This document shows, one piece after another, positions 8,261 through 62,887 of a DNA stretch of 64,000 bases. Under the pieces are notes generated by a model, which worked only from the letters and a program-made list of their open reading frames with translations, made no database searches and had not been told where the DNA came from. How positions within the stretch are numbered: position 1 is the first letter of the stretch; the number at the start of each line of letters is the position of its first letter. Origin of the DNA: a virus; IMG/VR virus record IMGVR_UViG_3300028829_004719; one strand, 5' to 3'. The translations under genes were made by a program, and so were the position numbers.

Positions 8261-9212
8261 AACGCTTCTCCTGTTTATTTTTATAATACCAATTGATAGT
8301 GTCTTTAAGCCCTAAGTAAAGCCCTGTTTTAGCTTTAAATCCAAAAATCTCATAAGCTTTACTAGTATCTAAACATCTGCGTGGTTGTCCATCTGGAAAT
8401 TTTGAGTTGTAGATTATCTTTCCGTCGTACCCCATAAGGCCAGAAATTAATTCTGCTAGTTCGCAAATCTTAATCTCTTCTCCCGTTCCCACATTGATTG
8501 GCAGTGGAGTAGTTTCTGCTTCTAGGGATCGACAGATAACATCGGCACAGTCATCAACATATAAAAACTCTCTACTTGCATTACCAGTTCCCCATAGCTC
8601 TATTTCCTTCTGCTTAGTTGATTTTGCTTTATCTATCTTTAATATTAATGCAGGGATGACGTGACTGCTTATTGGATTGAAGTTATCGTATGGCCCATAC
8701 ATATTGACCGGAATCAGATTTGTAGAATTGAGGCCGTATTGTCTGTTATATGCAATCAGCATTTCTATAAGTGTTTTTTTAGCGATGCCGTAAGGAGCGT
8801 TGGTTTCTTCTGGATATCCATTCCATAGATTTTCTTCTTTGAATGGAACCGGAGTAATTTTAGGATAAGAACAAACAGTTCCAATCATAATAAGATTTTT
8901 CAACTTTCCATACTTCTTAGCGGTCTCAATTAAATTCATCCCCATAGAAAGATTGTCATAAAGAAATTTTCCGGGCTGATCTCGATTGATACCTATACCT
9001 CCACAGGCAGCGGCGAGATGGATGATATAATCAGGTTTCAGCTCTTGAAATGCATAGTCTACCATTTTTTGATTGGTTAAATCCCACTGTCTTCTGCCAG
9101 CCAATCCGAGTACGTGATAGTTGTAAGTAGACTTTAGTCTTAATGTGACTGCGGTTCCGAGGAATCCTGTAGATCCGGTAATAACTACTCTAGGTTGTGA
9201 TTTATTCATCAA
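8232..9212 (-). CDS. fcl: GDP-L-fucose synthase
   Basis: ITGSTGFLG, HLAAACGGIG, YGIAK (YxxxK), WGTGNASREFLYVDD, DGQPRR. Confidence 0.95.
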   Translation of the reverse strand: MMNKSQPRVVITGSTGFLGTAVTLRLKSTYNYHVLGLAGRRQWDLTNQKMVDYAFQELKPDYIIHLAAACGGIGINRDQPGKFLYDNLSMGMNLIETAKKYGKLKNLIMIGTVCSYPKITPVPFKEENLWNGYPEETNAPYGIAKKTLIEMLIAYNRQYGLNSTNLIPVNMYGPYDNFNPISSHVIPALILKIDKAKSTKQKEIELWGTGNASREFLYVDDCADVICRSLEAETTPLPINVGTGEEIKICELAELISGLMGYDGKIIYNSKFPDGQPRRCLDTSKAYEIFGFKAKTGLYLGLKDTINWYYKNKQEKRFEDFFSYIQ

Positions 9213-30766: not shown

Positions 30767-31667
30767 ACTGCAACCTATCTAATAATTTATCAAAATTTTC
30801 TTCCAGCAATAAAGAGTAATCGTACTCAATTTTCCCATGCTCTGCGTGAAAGTCATTCATCCGTGTTCTGACGTCGGTCCACTCATATCTATTAACAAGA
30901 ACCATAGGCCAAATTTTAGAGAACACTTGATTCATCCAACTGTCTTGAACAATCGGAACCGTGTTACAGAGAATACACTCCCACGTTCTAAAAGTATCCA
31001 AACCATTGCCAGTCGGAGCTATTGCGAAGTGATGAGAAGATAACTCTGTAAGAAATTCTTTTACTGGTAACTTCTCCCCTTTCAATATTGGCATATTTAA
31101 TTCTACATCTTGTGCATTGTACCTTTTGGGGAAATTGCAATTTATGTAGTTTTGTTTCCAAGCCCATTCAGCAACTCTGATTCTATAAGGAGAAGTGATC
31201 GTAAAGTTTGCATAGCACAATCCACTTTTATTAATCGATCTAAGTTGTTCTAAGTTTACATTATCAAAAGTATTTTCCATAGCGTTGATAGGTATCGGAT
31301 AAATATTTTCTCTTAAAGGTTGTTTTATATTGGTGGTAAACCATCTTTCAACCCTACTGGCTACAGAGTCAATCTCTAGATTTAAATAAACACCACCGCT
31401 TGCAGCGTCTTCGATAGTATAAGAATACCACGGACTAGAAGTTATTTTACATTCGGTTTTCTTTATTCCCCAATCACCAGAATGAGTAATCAAAGTTGAC
31501 CCATCGTCCAATCTGTCTTCAATTAATGTCTCTAATCCATCTATAGTATTTTGCTTTAAACCCGTGGCGATATCTAAAGCGTTCATATTTTTACATGCCT
31601 TGTAAAGATTGCAATATGTCTTATCTTTAAGTTTGCCTTCTTTATCTTTCAACGTCCATAGATTCAT
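30738..31667 (-). CDS. Exostosin-like (GT47) glycosyltransferase
   Basis: HFAIAPTGNGLDTFRTWECILCNTVPIV. Confidence 0.75.
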   Translation of the reverse strand: MNLWTLKDKEGKLKDKTYCNLYKACKNMNALDIATGLKQNTIDGLETLIEDRLDDGSTLITHSGDWGIKKTECKITSSPWYSYTIEDAASGGVYLNLEIDSVASRVERWFTTNIKQPLRENIYPIPINAMENTFDNVNLEQLRSINKSGLCYANFTITSPYRIRVAEWAWKQNYINCNFPKRYNAQDVELNMPILKGEKLPVKEFLTELSSHHFAIAPTGNGLDTFRTWECILCNTVPIVQDSWMNQVFSKIWPMVLVNRYEWTDVRTRMNDFHAEHGKIEYDYSLLLEENFDKLLDRLQYESDRFRWE

Positions 31668-33823
31668 TAATTCAAACCCTCTTTGATCATAGTCTCAAGA
31701 AAATCTACTAAAACTGGGTTCGTTCTCAAAAATTCATACAACTTGTTTTGTCCTTGAAACTTACCAGCTTTTACTGAAAACAGTTCTTCTTCTTTTTCTA
31801 CATCAATATCTGGGAATATTTCTTTCGCCGTATCTTTTAAAAATTGTAAGAATGTACATGTAAACCATGCACCAGATTTGTCGATGAGTCCCAAGTCTAG
31901 TGCTAACGTCAGAATCTCTTGGGTCTTATCGATACCATGACCATAGCGAATGTAGCTTTGCACCTGACCTCCCGGCGGCCCCATTGAAGAACATACAATT
32001 TTCCAGTTAACTAGTTGACCAATTCTTTTTCCGTCGTCGTCGTCCCAGAACTTCACAGCAGAGATTTTTTCGCCACCACCAGCAATTTCCATTCTTGTGT
32101 CTGCCTGATACTGAATTTTGTTACCGCCGTCTGCCATCTTAGCCTTGCCAAAACCAGATGTGTTGGCAATGTAGTGAGTAATAGCAAGAACAAGTCCACG
32201 CTGCCGTGGTAGCAGTTGACCAATCTTCTTTGTGAATATACTAAGGATTTTTGGTAGTCCAGCACGACCGGGAGTGAAGTCATTATCTAACTCTTTAGAT
32301 GGAATCAACGACGAAATAGAGTCAATAATCAAGATAGCCCCGTAATTGTCTGGATGGCTCATCATTAAATAAGCCCACTCCAAAAACTTTTCGGCAGGAA
32401 TAGGTTTGTCTTCTGGAGCCATAATCAACATCTTATTTGGATCAAGCCCGTCCACTTGGAAGTTCATATCTTTGAATCTTCCTTCTGCGTCAATATAGAT
32501 GACGTTGCGTCCCATCTTTTGCACATTGCAGGCAATCTGCATAGCGGTCGTGGTATTATGCGTAACGTTCATACCGTCTGTAACAAAAAGGTGGTCGGGG
32601 TGATCAACACTAATACAAACGCACTCTTCTTTACTTGGAAGTTTTTCCACATCTACTATTTTTTTCATCAAAGTTGACTTACTTCTCTCCTTCTTTCCGG
32701 TTTTTCGATCCAGCCAAAAAAGCTGGTTAATACCTTCGCCAGAAATGTGTAGGCGAAACGATTTAAATCGCTTGCCACCGCACTTTGTGTAACGTTCAAC
32801 AATCTTCACTTTGAATCCAAGAGAGCGAATTACTTCAGCAACATCGTCTCGTAAAGCCGAAGATACTGTGGAGAATTCAGCACCGCCACCGTTGTTATTG
32901 TAACCATCTGAGTCCATTAACCCACGAACAAGTTCAAATCTTTGGTCAATGTCTCCATATTTGTAGCAGTCAGGGATAAACTTTCGGTGGCTATTAAGCC
33001 CCATTAATCCTAGATTTTTGAGATCGTTTGTGAGCGAATTATCTCCCACTCCATTGTCAGGATGAGACAGTGCATAATCGTAATTCGATATGTGTCTCAC
33101 TTTCAAGTTGCGACTCTCGGCAAATTCAGAAAATCTCATCATAATGTCGAGGTCTGCCGTTGAAATCCTCGGCGTTCTCTGGGTTAGACCCCCGTCGCCA
33201 AGAAGCATTCCAAGCTCCCAACCGGGTATCGGTTGTTCTTTTTGTGAAAATTCTAAGGGTTGAGTTAGCTGGATTCTCCACTTAGGATGGTCGCTGTAAT
33301 GAAGCCCCTCAGTTACCATGTCGCCAAGCGTCATAACCTCAAACCCTTTGTATCTGCCGTGATAGTTTTTATTAACACGCCATAAGTGGTCCCACGAGCA
33401 GTCTACATATGTACCGTCACAAAAATGCACACGGTAAATATCAAGCTCCCCTTGGGGAAAAACGCCGTCAACAATTGCGGTTGACCCATCTGGCGTCACC
33501 ACCTCATCTCCAACTTCGATGTCACCTATTTTTACAGGACCATCAGGCGTGTACACGGCAGCGTCAATACGCAGGCTCTTGCCAGACTTTGGATCACCAG
33601 TTAAGGTGACCCAGCTACCTTCCTTGATCCCTCCACCAAGAGCAATATCAATAGCTGGACCAACAGAAATAACTTCGTAATTACTTTTCTCTTTCAAGAC
33701 TTCGGTTCCGGTCTTTATAATCCTGCCAAATTCTTTAGAGGATTTCTTCAAGTAGTCTGGAACCTTGTATGGCTTAGATGGTTCGGGTTCAAGGTTGGAA
33801 TCTGTTAATTTAACTAGTGCCAT
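31667..33823 (-). CDS. recA: RecA-family recombinase containing an intein
   Basis: IDIALGGGI, P-loop GDPKSGK|TT split by an intein, YIDAEG, IIDSISSL, GGNKIQY. Confidence 0.9.
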   Translation of the reverse strand: MALVKLTDSNLEPEPSKPYKVPDYLKKSSKEFGRIIKTGTEVLKEKSNYEVISVGPAIDIALGGGIKEGSWVTLTGDPKSGKSLRIDAAVYTPDGPVKIGDIEVGDEVVTPDGSTAIVDGVFPQGELDIYRVHFCDGTYVDCSWDHLWRVNKNYHGRYKGFEVMTLGDMVTEGLHYSDHPKWRIQLTQPLEFSQKEQPIPGWELGMLLGDGGLTQRTPRISTADLDIMMRFSEFAESRNLKVRHISNYDYALSHPDNGVGDNSLTNDLKNLGLMGLNSHRKFIPDCYKYGDIDQRFELVRGLMDSDGYNNNGGGAEFSTVSSALRDDVAEVIRSLGFKVKIVERYTKCGGKRFKSFRLHISGEGINQLFWLDRKTGKKERSKSTLMKKIVDVEKLPSKEECVCISVDHPDHLFVTDGMNVTHNTTTAMQIACNVQKMGRNVIYIDAEGRFKDMNFQVDGLDPNKMLIMAPEDKPIPAEKFLEWAYLMMSHPDNYGAILIIDSISSLIPSKELDNDFTPGRAGLPKILSIFTKKIGQLLPRQRGLVLAITHYIANTSGFGKAKMADGGNKIQYQADTRMEIAGGGEKISAVKFWDDDDGKRIGQLVNWKIVCSSMGPPGGQVQSYIRYGHGIDKTQEILTLALDLGLIDKSGAWFTCTFLQFLKDTAKEIFPDIDVEKEEELFSVKAGKFQGQNKLYEFLRTNPVLVDFLETMIKEGLN
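32555..33577 (-). mobile_element. LAGLIDADG intein (341 aa) in the RecA P-loop
   Basis: Starts Ser (SLRIDAAV), block B SWDH, LGMLLGDG and LVRGLMDSDG, ends VTHN, +1 Thr. Confidence 0.95.
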
Positions 33824-48544: not shown

Positions 48545-50599
48545 TTAGAATACCTCTCCGATACTGTATTTTATTTCTCTAGCAGGGAATCCATCCACGT
48601 CACTGAATACCCAAGCACTCCCGCTGGATAACATTCCCTTTGCATCTTTTTCACGAATCCAAAAAGATCCGTCAGGTTGATCATGGACCTTGGGTCCAGT
48701 ATTCCACGCCCCCCAGCTGTTTTGCACTAAGAATAAAGTTTCATTTAGTCTATTTTTAGTATCGTCACATGCAATCCACGCCATAGCATGTGCCCATCCA
48801 CTAGAGCGTTTAGCAATTCCGTTTTTATCTCGACGAGAACTAAATCCGTACCCACTACATACAGACATTGCATAACCATTGGCAAGAGCGTCACGAGCTT
48901 CTTCTACCGTTCTAATGTTAGAAATGGTTTTTACTTGATGTTTTTGTGCTTCATCCTCATAAATCCTGTTAGGAATTTGCTTTTTTGCACCTAGAGAGGA
49001 ATCATAAGTAGAGAGATCAACTTCTCCGTAATCCTTCCTAAGTAAAATTCCGCCCTTTTGATTGACATATCTAGCGGCTCCTGAGCATGTCATACCTTGA
49101 CCCCTGTGTCCACGAGACTGGTAAATTCCTTCAGTTGCACTACGGACAATAAAACTTTCCCTTTCTCCATTTTTTATTTCAACAGCCCTTGTAATGTCTA
49201 TAGCATTTCTTGTCGCATGAGAAACGCAATTATGCACTGCCAATCCGTTAGCGATGAAACTATGATCTTCTTCTACATTGACACAATAGACATAATCATC
49301 ATGAGGCGAGACATTAATAGTAGTTATGGGTGCTAACAACCCTAAACTACAGGTAAGTTTATTTTGTCTAGTTTTTTGATGAACCTTAGTAGCACAAGAG
49401 TGTTCTGGGTATACTTTATACACCTGATCGCCATATAAATTAATTTGCCAAGCTTTTTTACTTCGCTTTCTTGGCTCTCTTTTATGTATGGTGTGTTGAA
49501 TCTGTAATTTGATTAAAATATCAGATATGTCTTTAATTAGAGATTCTGATACAGATACTCCAGAAATTTTTCTTCTGTTTTCTAGAGTTAAATGACCATC
49601 TCCATCAATCCAACCTCTAACAAATTGAGTCATGAGATCTTTAGTGTTATTTTTTATTACATCATTAATTGATTTAGACCACTGATTACCGGCAACCATA
49701 TCAGAAAATAATCTAGCAATAACTATATTAGAACATCTAATACATACTACGCCTTTTTTAGACCTGTCCAATTTTGTAGTTCTAGTCCCAGTCCCAAATA
49801 TTTCCTTAAACAGTAATTGAATTCTATCTTGTATCTCTACTTCTTTTGAAGATAGATTGAAGGTAATTCTCTCTTTGTTTTTTCCATCCAAACCGCCTTC
49901 GGCAGCATAAATACCGAATAACCACATAAGATCAGAAGATAGTGGAATATATCTTGGAATTTTATTTTTAGAATTTTTATTTCTTATGAAATTCTCATTA
50001 ATTTCACCCACCGTATCTAAATATTTTGACATATCTAGTACGTCATACTCTGTTGATCTTTTAGAAATAGATTTAGGCAATACTAATAAATCTTCTTCTT
50101 TTAGGTCTTCAGCTTTAATCCACTCATATCCATAGTCTGAATAAACTACAAATTGATGATCCCTAGTCACTGAGATAGTTTTATCATATTTTTTTATGTA
50201 AATCTCTAGTAACTCTGGATGGTGAGGATATTTTTTTATCTCTTGATAAACCCTTCTACTTCTGTTATTGTGTGTTATGACATAATCGCCAACGCGAACA
50301 TCTTCGATGTTTTTATATGTACCATCTGACATGCTTACCTTAGTGCCACTAATTAGGCAGTCCCCGGTAGTCTGTCTTTCTGACGGACCAAATTCTGGAT
50401 CAAAATCAATTAAACTTTTAAAAGGAAGACTTAATTTTTCCTCTCCAGATCTATATAGACTGTATGCCGCAGCACCAAACACAGGAGATGAAAGTTCTCC
50501 TAGTAGTTTTTTTACATCTTCTTCATCGCATACTGAACCAACAAAGCCCTGCTTATACATTTTAAGCAATGCCGCTGGCGTTTTAAAGTTGTATTCCAT
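48545..50599 (-). CDS. Papain-like (clan CA) cysteine peptidase containing an intein
   Basis: After intein removal: QTTGD|CVSHA (oxyanion Gln and catalytic Cys), GWAHAM (His), QNSWG (Asn). Confidence 0.85.
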   Translation of the reverse strand: MEYNFKTPAALLKMYKQGFVGSVCDEEDVKKLLGELSSPVFGAAAYSLYRSGEEKLSLPFKSLIDFDPEFGPSERQTTGDCLISGTKVSMSDGTYKNIEDVRVGDYVITHNNRSRRVYQEIKKYPHHPELLEIYIKKYDKTISVTRDHQFVVYSDYGYEWIKAEDLKEEDLLVLPKSISKRSTEYDVLDMSKYLDTVGEINENFIRNKNSKNKIPRYIPLSSDLMWLFGIYAAEGGLDGKNKERITFNLSSKEVEIQDRIQLLFKEIFGTGTRTTKLDRSKKGVVCIRCSNIVIARLFSDMVAGNQWSKSINDVIKNNTKDLMTQFVRGWIDGDGHLTLENRRKISGVSVSESLIKDISDILIKLQIQHTIHKREPRKRSKKAWQINLYGDQVYKVYPEHSCATKVHQKTRQNKLTCSLGLLAPITTINVSPHDDYVYCVNVEEDHSFIANGLAVHNCVSHATRNAIDITRAVEIKNGERESFIVRSATEGIYQSRGHRGQGMTCSGAARYVNQKGGILLRKDYGEVDLSTYDSSLGAKKQIPNRIYEDEAQKHQVKTISNIRTVEEARDALANGYAMSVCSGYGFSSRRDKNGIAKRSSGWAHAMAWIACDDTKNRLNETLFLVQNSWGAWNTGPKVHDQPDGSFWIREKDAKGMLSSGSAWVFSDVDGFPAREIKYSIGEVF
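49229..50359 (-). mobile_element. LAGLIDADG intein (377 aa)
   Basis: Starts CLISGTKV, block B TRDHQF, LFGIYAAEG and FVRGWIDGDG, ends AVHN, +1 Cys. Confidence 0.95.
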
Positions 50600-61389: not shown

Positions 61390-61812
61390 TTAAGACTCTC
61401 CTTTCAAAGAAACACTTACTAATTTATGCGGACAATTATACATATTGTCACACAGTTTCGACTTTTTAAAAGTTCCCATGTATAATACTACATGAGTTGA
61501 AGACGTTTTAACTTTGCTGAACTCTCCCATTCCATACGCTTGGATAAAATCCCTTCCAACTTTATCTACTTTAAATCTACCATAAGACCCCATATAAACT
61601 TTTTCTTTTGTAGAAGGGTCTTCCCAATAAGGACCATTCCCATGTACGGATCTTACAATATCTCCTTTCTTTAATTCTTGCCAGTTATCAATTACGGATT
61701 TTACCTTCTTGTAAAAACAATGCCCACAATCGCACTCTGCTTTTCTTGCATGTAATTTATTTTTACACTCAGGACATGTTTTTAGTGGCGGGGTTCGTTT
61801 CTTATCAATCAT
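61390..61812 (-). CDS. Zn-ribbon protein
   Basis: CPEC...CDCG; strong GGAGAGG SD. Confidence 0.7.
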   Translation of the reverse strand: MIDKKRTPPLKTCPECKNKLHARKAECDCGHCFYKKVKSVIDNWQELKKGDIVRSVHGNGPYWEDPSTKEKVYMGSYGRFKVDKVGRDFIQAYGMGEFSKVKTSSTHVVLYMGTFKKSKLCDNMYNCPHKLVSVSLKGES

Positions 61813-61848: not shown

Positions 61849-61877
61849 ATTATAGCATACTAATCAATATTTGTCAA
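61849..61877 (-). promoter_or_regulatory. Consensus sigma-70 promoter
   Basis: TTGACA-17 nt-TATAAT with TG extension on the minus strand. Confidence 0.9.
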
Positions 61878-61904: not shown

Positions 61905-61925
61905 TCCGTTTTTTACAGAAACGGA
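61905..61925 (-). terminator. Terminator after the tmRNA-like gene
   Basis: TCCGTTT/AAACGGA stem then TTTTT. Confidence 0.7.
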
Positions 61926-61927
61926 AA

Positions 61928-62198
61928 GGGGTCTTGCGACTCACTACCGGACTACCGGCCAGAAAAACTGGTTATATTGGGTGATAAGGCATAACAACCT
62001 CAGACAGCTTACGCTGCCAATGCGAGACTTTCATCTGCAATTAACACACTACCCCAAGCGTATTTTACTTGGTAATCCGTCGATCATATGAGTTACATTC
62101 TCATATAAGTGTGCTTCTGGTGGACCTGCCGACATTCGAAAGTCGGGTCCATAACAAACTTCCATAACAACGTCTACAATCATATCTGGCAAAGCCAG
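61928..62198 (-). ncRNA. ssrA: Circularly permuted (two-piece) tmRNA-like gene, tag ADESLALAA
   Basis: GGAC-T-arm-CAGGTCC-ACCA (62150-62118) lies upstream of GATCGACGGATT and of TAATT-GCA GAT GAA AGT CTC GCA TTG GCA GCG TAA (62038-62009). Confidence 0.8.
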
Positions 62199-62201
62199 CT
62201 T

Positions 62202-62540
62202 TCATTCCCAGTGCATCTCATCATAGGTTCTAATCCTGTGACAATTAGAACATCTGATTTCACATTTGTCAATCTCCTTTTGGATACGTTCTGTCGAGAA
62301 TCGAGATCGTACCATTTTAGAGATTCCTTTTGTTTTCTTTTTAGGGTCTACATGGTCAAAATCTAGGCATTTCCAGTTGTCCTCACCGCAATCGACGCAC
62401 TTAGATGCTTTCTTAATATCATTTACATAGTCTCTAGCTTTGTTCAGCCTAGCCTTTTGACGAGCTTGATAAAGTTCCTTATTTTTTTGATAATGTTCCG
62501 CTTGAGCAAGTCTTTGCTTCTCTTTGTCTTTATATGGCAT
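62202..62540 (-). CDS. HNH endonuclease
   Basis: CVDCG...LDFDHVD...KCEIRCSNCHRIRT. Confidence 0.92.
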   Translation of the reverse strand: MPYKDKEKQRLAQAEHYQKNKELYQARQKARLNKARDYVNDIKKASKCVDCGEDNWKCLDFDHVDPKKKTKGISKMVRSRFSTERIQKEIDKCEIRCSNCHRIRTYDEMHWE

Positions 62541-62571
62541 AATAACTCCTTAATTAAATAGGTTATTATAC

Positions 62572-62578: not shown

Positions 62579-62616
62579 ATTTTTTGGGTTTGAGTGCGAA
62601 ATTTCGCTCGAACCAA

Positions 62617-62690
62617 CGACTCTGACCGGATTCGAACCGGCAATCGCTGGATCGACAGTCCAGTGCATTGACCAATTATGCTACAGAGCC
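62617..62690 (-). tRNA. tRNA-Asp(GTC), CCA not encoded
   Basis: Full cloverleaf: GGCTCTG/CAGAGTC acceptor, CTGGA-CTGTCGA-TCCAG anticodon arm, GTTCGAATC T-loop, G73. Confidence 0.93.
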
Positions 62691-62693
62691 AAA

Positions 62694-62764
62694 AGCCACT
62701 ACGAGGAATCGAACCCCGAATAGCTGATTACAAATCAGCAGTTATACCGTTTAACTATAGTGGC
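62694..62764 (-). tRNA. tRNA-Thr(TGT), CCA not encoded
   Basis: GCCACTA/TAGTGGC acceptor, GCTGA-TTTGTAA-TCAGC anticodon arm, GTTCGATTC T-loop. Confidence 0.95.
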
Positions 62765-62858: not shown

Positions 62859-62887
62859 ATTATACTGTACAAAATAACCTTTGTCAA
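62859..62887 (-). promoter_or_regulatory. Consensus sigma-70 promoter of the tRNA array
   Basis: TTGACA-17 nt-TATAAT on the minus strand. Confidence 0.9.

Follow-up and report, generated by a model that had tools for sequence, protein, structure and literature searches.

Two-piece tmRNAs are already known from marine phages. Melnitz, a phage of OM43, and the pelagimyophages encode them, and 53 of 133 unique phage tmRNA structures are two-piece, 50 of the 53 coming from marine or aquatic phages (PMC9004378). Permuted forms are covered by a merged covariance model, RF04321 tmRNA_permuted, and partial tmRNA genes also occur in phages, for instance in DS6A; the tmRNA database likewise holds entries of the type "permuted, no CDS" (PMC11915505). 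Genomes of Planctomycetota contain 1914 standard tmRNAs and 1 permuted tmRNA (PMC11915505, Table S2). Here we compare with these systems a locus in IMG/VR virus record IMGVR_UViG_3300028829_004719, in a stretch of 64,000 nucleotides that was analysed as a whole and is called the window below. A preliminary description had read positions 61928–62198, on the minus strand, as an independent, minimal, circularly permuted tmRNA with the tag ADESLALAA, by which a phage would control ribosome rescue. Our comparison of related contigs corrects this apparent new minimal tmRNA to a deleted copy of an ordinary phage two-piece tmRNA: the window very probably holds a 94-base deletion allele, real or made by an assembly error, of a known kind of gene, and no new minimal design.

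Like the tmRNA genes of Melnitz and the pelagimyophages, the locus is a permuted ssrA in a marine phage, lies near tRNA genes behind a promoter, and no phage smpB was found with it. As the preliminary description had stated, the 64-kb window contains no smpB detectable by tblastn with two host SmpB proteins as queries; a weak match at 8607–8948 was rejected as a chance match to an NAD-dependent epimerase. Unlike the phages described in PMC9004378, whose tmRNAs group with the permuted lineages (Alphaproteobacteria, a betaproteobacterial group and Cyanobacteria), this one appears to infect a family with one-piece tmRNA only, and its tag and pseudoknot 1 match those of the host. It further differs from them in that Rfam, in gathering and permissive modes, detected no glutamine riboswitch in the window, and in that the window copy has a 94-base internal deletion. 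The genome is phage-like by its replication and nucleotide-metabolism genes, its inteins and endonucleases, its tRNAs and its related IMG/VR contigs; no phage structural gene was found among 20 window ORFs tested.

The element belongs to one RNA cluster on the minus strand. The cluster begins behind a perfect sigma-70-type promoter (62859–62887; TTGACA, 17-base spacer, TATAAT) with tRNA-Thr (UGU; 62694–62764) and tRNA-Asp (GUC; 62616–62691), both called by ARAGORN and Rfam, continues with an ORF for a 112-residue HNH endonuclease (62202–62540) and then the tmRNA-like element, and is closed by an intrinsic terminator (61905–61925). The HNH ORF is polymorphic: contigs of runs X3, X6 and X15 are without it and join 62615 to 62186 through the 9-base joint CCCGAAGGG, which itself forms a small hairpin. 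Just downstream of the element lies a conserved gene for a 140-residue protein (61390–61812), homologues of which were found on IMG/VR contigs; a search for relatives of a 297-residue neighbour yielded none. A second perfect sigma-70-type promoter (61849–61877, minus strand; TTGACA, 17-base spacer, TATAAT, TG extension) directly follows the tmRNA terminator, drives the 140-residue gene and is kept in L124 and L125, the contigs with the closest homologues of that gene. Mobile endonucleases are frequent in the window genome; a RecA-like recombinase and a second protein (31667–33823 and 48545–50599, minus strand) each contain an intein bearing a LAGLIDADG endonuclease domain.

The anatomy of the element agrees in large part with the preliminary description. 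On the minus strand the tRNA-like 3' end comes first. The acceptor piece opens with a leader hairpin, CUGGC-UUU-GCCAG (62186–62198), at a position where relatives retain a hairpin of different sequence, and continues with the 3' strand of helix 2 (62151–62185), which is intact while its partner is deleted. Next comes a block (62118–62150) made up of GGAC (62150–62147), a T arm (62146–62129) with the 5-bp stem CCGAC/GUCGG and the 8-base loop UUUCGAAU (62134–62141), the adjoining 3' acceptor strand CAGGUCC with U70 (62128–62122), and ACCA, the discriminator A plus an encoded CCA (62121–62118). A hairpin is present 3' of ACCA, within the segment (62045–62117) that lies between the two pieces in intact alleles; there, an outer hairpin GAAGCACACU/AGUGUG (also given as AGUGUGUUUC) surrounds an inner hairpin and GAUCGACGGAUU.

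The coding part follows the deletion junction (62044–62045). UUAAUU, the resume codon GCA and the tag frame with its stop occupy 62009–62044, the frame ADESLALAA plus stop itself spanning 62038–62009 and ending, as had been noted, in ALAA with its stop inside a hairpin, GGCAGC-GUAA-GCUGUC (62003–62018), which is kept across the family with G-U/G-C changes. It is followed by a 3' hairpin (61970–61997) whose loop, CCUUAUCACCCAA, is common to the betaproteobacterial two-piece tmRNA model, by a 32-base stretch of 3' tail (61928–61959) found in the window and in the relative L184, and then by the terminator. ACCA lies upstream of the tag, with a single promoter and a single terminator around the cluster, so that the permuted gene order is preserved. 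The claim of a circularly permuted tmRNA in a phage stands insofar as the locus is homologous to permuted genes and the genome is phage-like; it falls insofar as the window copy is broken by the deletion.

The ARAGORN and Infernal/Rfam check suggested in the preliminary description yielded no tmRNA call in the window. ARAGORN called two tRNAs only and no tmRNA, and no tmRNA model of Rfam was reached at gathering scores. In permissive mode, RF04321 gave a sub-threshold full-length alignment of 16.6 bits, against a threshold of 47, with acceptor-stem mismatches flagged, and beta_tmRNA gave a partial match of 28.1 bits (E 8e-7) over the tag end and 3' hairpin. When the 64 kb was compared with a profile built from the family's coding pieces, the match began only at UUAAUUGCA, and no 5' coding part of tmRNA type turned up anywhere else. 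Exact and near searches of the phage collection and IMG/VR with the locus DNA returned no match.

The missing parts can be named. For a 7-bp acceptor stem with G3:U70 and A73, the window has CAGGUCC-A, and the complementary 5' strand is absent from the locus: of the 7-mers aligned there, the best, GAGAAUG, fails to pair with CAGGUCC at 3 of its 7 positions. GGGAAUG, at the end of the HNH frame (62209–62203), was rejected as a 5' acceptor strand because it pairs at 5 of 7 positions with two A-G mismatches, and also because intact alleles hold a perfect strand elsewhere. A GGAC/GUCC minihelix was rejected as well, since GGAC is a conserved pre-T-arm motif in 64 of 74 family members. Helix 2 has its 3' strand in the window and its 5' strand within the deleted 94 bases. 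Pseudoknot 1, present with compensatory changes in the sister alleles L224 and L225 and across the family, is deleted, and the window has no room for one, in keeping with the earlier remark that space was too short for a normal pseudoknot 1.

These sister alleles come from three contigs, L224 (a 24.5-kb JGI contig), L225 and L226, which encode exactly the window's HNH protein and originate from samples other than the window's. All three match the window at 99.9–100% on both sides of the junction; for L224, identity is 100% over 64000–62043 and 99.9% over 61927–59264. Exactly between window positions 62045 and 62044, L224 has 94 extra bases (L224:3497–3590). L225 and L226 have the 94-base segment at the same site, that of L226 being the same as in L224 and that of L225 differing in helix 2a and pseudoknot 1. 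L224 is also without the 32 bases of 3' tail (61959–61928), so that two length differences fall within 300 bases. Over 62043–62571 a contig of run X3 has exactly the window's sequence, and it then goes on as the intact alleles do, with GGGCCUG-AAAGGUA-UCGAC.

In order, the 94 bases contain the end of the intervening hairpin, GGGCCUG, a 7-base spacer, UCGAC, helix 2a and a complete pseudoknot 1. In L224, L225 and L226, GGGCCUG pairs 7/7 with CAGGUCC, G3:U70 included. RF04321 scores 92.6 bits on L224, with no non-standard pair flagged, and 88.6 bits on L225. Cofolding joined the two predicted mature pieces of L224 (81 and 171 bases) through 30 intermolecular pairs and reproduced the leader hairpin and the T arm as well as the acceptor stem and helix 2; the duplex energy of the true helix 2a is −16.7 kcal/mol. 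ARAGORN misses the intact L224 and L225 alleles too, which may well be due to their long intervening segment or to the T loop of 8 bases.

Among the individual models, RF01850 beta_tmRNA aligns with L224 over its whole length at 79 bits, including the stretch after CCA and the 3' hairpin loop CCUUnnnACCCAA, just under the gathering score of 84, whereas the window copy fails all models. Because the intact gene aligns along the whole betaproteobacterial model, the independent origin that had been proposed is not supported. L224 also passes alpha_tmRNA (65.3 bits against 50), and its subtype is therefore unclear. It departs from RF01850 and RF04321 in its long intervening segment (81 bases; up to about 605 in relatives) and its T loop of 8 bases. 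Phage-borne two-piece tmRNAs having been published, the intact allele belongs to a known kind.

For the window copy the consequence is direct. The 94-base gap takes away the 5' acceptor strand, so the RNA cannot form an acceptor stem and cannot be charged, and without that stem it cannot control ribosome rescue as a tmRNA, contrary to what had been suggested. The phage may have another, complete copy beyond the 64 kb. What looked like a minimal design, without pseudoknot 1 and the 5' acceptor strand, is a 94-base deletion relative to otherwise identical contigs. Function is not certain even for the intact allele, because the T loop that it shares with the window allele has 8 bases, against 7 in all other family alleles examined. 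Either ssrA pseudogene or assembly gap would be a suitable annotation for the window copy.

As to the origin of the gap, the evidence tilts modestly towards a real deletion. It is possible, at somewhat below even confidence, that the phage of the source sample has an intact gene like that of L224 and that the gap was made during contig assembly. The junction 62045|62044 was found in the window and in no other contig read, and all other contigs that have the window's distinctive T arm and intervening segment and reach the junction carry the 94 bases. In the probable source runs, 0.98 of the words from a 711-base stretch are present, yet only 2 of the 3 sampled junction words, the same share as in unrelated runs; for the 62-base junction stretch, no run in the k-mer index, the probable source runs included, had all 3 sampled words, three words being a weak test. 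A look-up of the spurious ORF spanning the junction gave no record, and the contigs L124 and L125 end shortly before the gene. Arguing against an assembly artefact, the flanks of the gap have no repeat of k-mer length and only about 2 bases of microhomology, so that a graph assembler had no obvious reason to skip the segment; the separate 32-base indel relative to L224, in the same 300-base region, points to real length variation at the locus; and relatives show natural losses, L124 being without the coding piece and L126–L129 without a tmRNA gene immediately upstream of the 140-residue gene.

L124, the closest relative by the 140-residue gene (74% identity), preserves in L124:1–212 the 3' strand of the acceptor stem, then ACCA and the same hairpin, GAAGCACACUU. 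After this hairpin come directly an 11-bp stem and a U run, then the promoter of the next gene, and the tag frame is absent. By its sequence L124 reads as another truncated allele; the contig begins within the T arm.

If the deletion is real, the shortened RNA might have acquired a different role. With its T arm and elbow it could bind host SmpB or compete with host tmRNA as a decoy and so dampen trans-translation. Promoter, terminator, acceptor-piece part and tag part are all intact in the window, L124 likewise retains the acceptor-piece part only, and in mycobacteriophage DS6A a form of tmRNA that is tRNA-like and has no tag reportedly inhibits the tmRNA of the host (PMC11915505). The window copy resembles such truncated or tag-less forms in being a partial tmRNA gene in a phage, some of which have been proposed to act on host trans-translation. 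It also differs from them: they keep a foldable tRNA-like domain without a tag, whereas the window copy keeps the tag and loses half of that domain, which cannot fold as in tmRNA without the 5' strand. Since there is also no sign that the deleted form is conserved beyond one contig, we regard a decoy function as very unlikely.

The reading closest to the preliminary description, that of a minimal functional two-piece tmRNA, is more improbable still. It would have an acceptor stem GGAUU/GGUCC, a helix 2 formed by GACGGAUU.../...AGUUUGUU and no pseudoknot 1. Short complementarities of this kind do exist in the sequence, and MAFFT and RF04321 loosely place the stretch on the acceptor-stem/helix 2a region. 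However, GGAUU is unable to serve both helices at once, and the stem would have 5 pairs only, with A3-U70 in place of G3:U70. The proposed helix 2 duplex, at −12.0 kcal/mol, is reached by 28% of shuffles and is thus at chance level, and the covariance-model score lies far under its threshold, as given above. The intact sister alleles contradict this reading: GAUCGAC-GGAUU, taken earlier as the start of the coding piece, sits inside their intervening segment, where the same bases would be excised and lie upstream of the perfect GGGCCUG. There the stretch beginning with GAUCGACGGAUU falls in the 81-base intervening segment, inside an outer hairpin also found after ACCA in L137 and L141. Its weak resemblance to the true UCGAC and helix 2a region suggests that it may be a degenerate duplicate, which would explain its placement on helix 2a by alignment programs.

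That the element is an attachment-site remnant, a copy of the host ssrA 3' end carried for integration, can practically be set aside: integration into ssrA is common among phages, which carry the 3' end of the gene (PMC11915505, PMC9004378), but the window's T arm and acceptor strand are unlike the host tmRNA 3' end, alignment is confined to the stretch running from pseudoknot 1 to the tag, and the locus is collinear with complete permuted genes of relatives.

The deletion allele stands within a wider family of such genes. Upstream of homologues of the 140-residue gene, L001 and L002 reach 105 bits on RF04321 and are called by ARAGORN as permuted tmRNAs with the tag AEETLALAA, and L004 reaches 79 bits. 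Aligned with these three, the window is short of about 32 bases at the relatives' pseudoknot 1, and where they have GGGGGUG or GGGCGUG, perfect partners of their own 3' strands, the window has GAGAAUG. In L001 (5040–5086) and at the same place in L002, a tRNA-like minihelix lies just upstream of the permuted tmRNA, with a 7-bp acceptor-like stem and a T arm (loop UUCGAUU) and with the D and anticodon arms absent; it could serve as a signal for processing or be what is left of a tRNA.

A degenerate tag-frame pattern retrieved at least 90 marine metagenome contigs and 4 genome contigs. The tag frame, the absence of which from relatives would by the preliminary description's own account have spoken against it, is therefore conserved; the 94 tag matches in these loci comprise 91 of ADESLALAA and 3 of ADDSLAFAA. 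ARAGORN called a permuted tmRNA in slightly more than half of the metagenome contigs. A strict test of the tRNA-like domain, which required all 7 acceptor-stem pairs, an A as discriminator and an adjacent T stem of 5 bp, was passed by 74 of the 97 loci with a tag, the failures being mostly contigs cut short. The acceptor stem occurs in six covarying versions, all with G3:U70. In RNAalifold on 25 members, 19 of 40 pairs showed compensatory changes, and hardly any pair was broken.

The family's intervening segments are between 5 and 605 bases long. In L184, which is nearest to the window by its 3' part (98%), an ORF for a 182-residue endonuclease (L184:2457–3002, minus strand; PHROG 3322, with endonuclease VII/HNH-like matches) lies between the tmRNA pieces, and its stop codon overlaps with the 5' acceptor strand. 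Segments of similar length, 598–605 bases, occur in L172, L201 and other loci. Homing endonuclease genes seem to use the excised segment as a landing site.

The tag leads to the probable host. Two genome matches are Planctomycetota/Pirellulaceae MAGs with a one-piece tmRNA (RF00023, 151–163 bits) and the tag ADESLALAA. Among 41 Pirellulaceae genomes, 31 have a tmRNA match above the RF00023 threshold, and ARAGORN found a one-piece gene at 29 of the 30 Pirellulaceae loci fetched. Tags in this family are mostly of 9 residues, ADESFALAA, ADENLALAA and AEGNFALAA among them; a literature search found no paper mentioning ADESLALAA. The planctomycete host assumed earlier is thus likely, judged by the match of tag and pseudoknot 1 to the Pirellulaceae one-piece tmRNA and by a DUF1501 protein encoded in the window.

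Beyond the identical tag, the resume region is nearly identical to that of the Pirellulaceae one-piece tmRNA (RF00023), as is pseudoknot 1 in some phage alleles. The host gene, in contrast, has the unpermuted arrangement and its full set of pseudoknots, and its alignment with the phage gene is limited to the part that runs from pseudoknot 1 to the stop. Between L225:924–1001 and the host MAG L220:4603–4683, a single stretch of 81 bases aligns, which extends from pseudoknot 1 through the stop codon and is 91% identical. L224 and L225 have the same sequence upstream and diverge in helix 2a and pseudoknot 1, the pseudoknot 1 changes being compensatory. These patterns suggest that modules of ssrA have been exchanged, either between phage and host or from phage to phage.

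Some very deeply covered metatranscriptome contigs (depth up to about 3500; runs X15, X17 and X18) match 62008–62044 only, and as contigs they show presence, not RNA ends. Two loose-end consensuses of metatranscriptome contigs run on into sequence like that of the one-piece tmRNA in L222, from Pirellulaceae. In the estuary and sediment samples with words of the locus, the tmRNA of the likely host is abundant.

We propose that the locus is the ssrA of a marine phage whose host would probably be a member of Pirellulaceae (Planctomycetota), and that its intact form is a circularly permuted two-piece tmRNA gene, presumably transcribed within one RNA cluster. In sister contigs the order runs from the promoter through tRNA-Thr, tRNA-Asp and sometimes HNH to the leader hairpin, the helix 2 3' strand, the T arm and CAGGUCC-ACCA, and on through the 81-base intervening segment to GGGCCUG, UCGAC, helix 2a, pseudoknot 1, ADESLALAA, the 3' hairpins and the terminator. 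By analogy with what is established for two-piece tmRNAs, from which we infer processing, charging and tagging alike, the intervening segment would be removed by tRNA-processing enzymes, and the two pieces would stay together through 7 bp of acceptor stem and some 23 bp of helix 2. Host AlaRS would charge the RNA via G3:U70 and A73, host SmpB would deliver it to stalled ribosomes, and the tag, identical to the host's own, would direct the rescued product to host proteases. The window allele would be either dead or a live one that was misassembled.

For the family as a whole we tentatively advance, at slightly under even confidence, that Pirellulaceae phages carry a betaproteobacterial-type two-piece tmRNA whose messenger module is kept host-matched by ssrA recombination, and that the intervening segment and flanks are landing sites of homing endonucleases driving mosaic alleles and deletions. 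New in this picture may be a permuted phage gene with a host-matched messenger module in a one-piece phylum, and the endonuclease genes in and beside the gene. The identical tag and near-identical pseudoknot 1 link these phages to marine Pirellulaceae, a group with few known phages. The permuted phage gene set against the one-piece host gene offers a natural case for why phages favour the two-piece form, and the family is also a case for how a tag module stays matched to its host.
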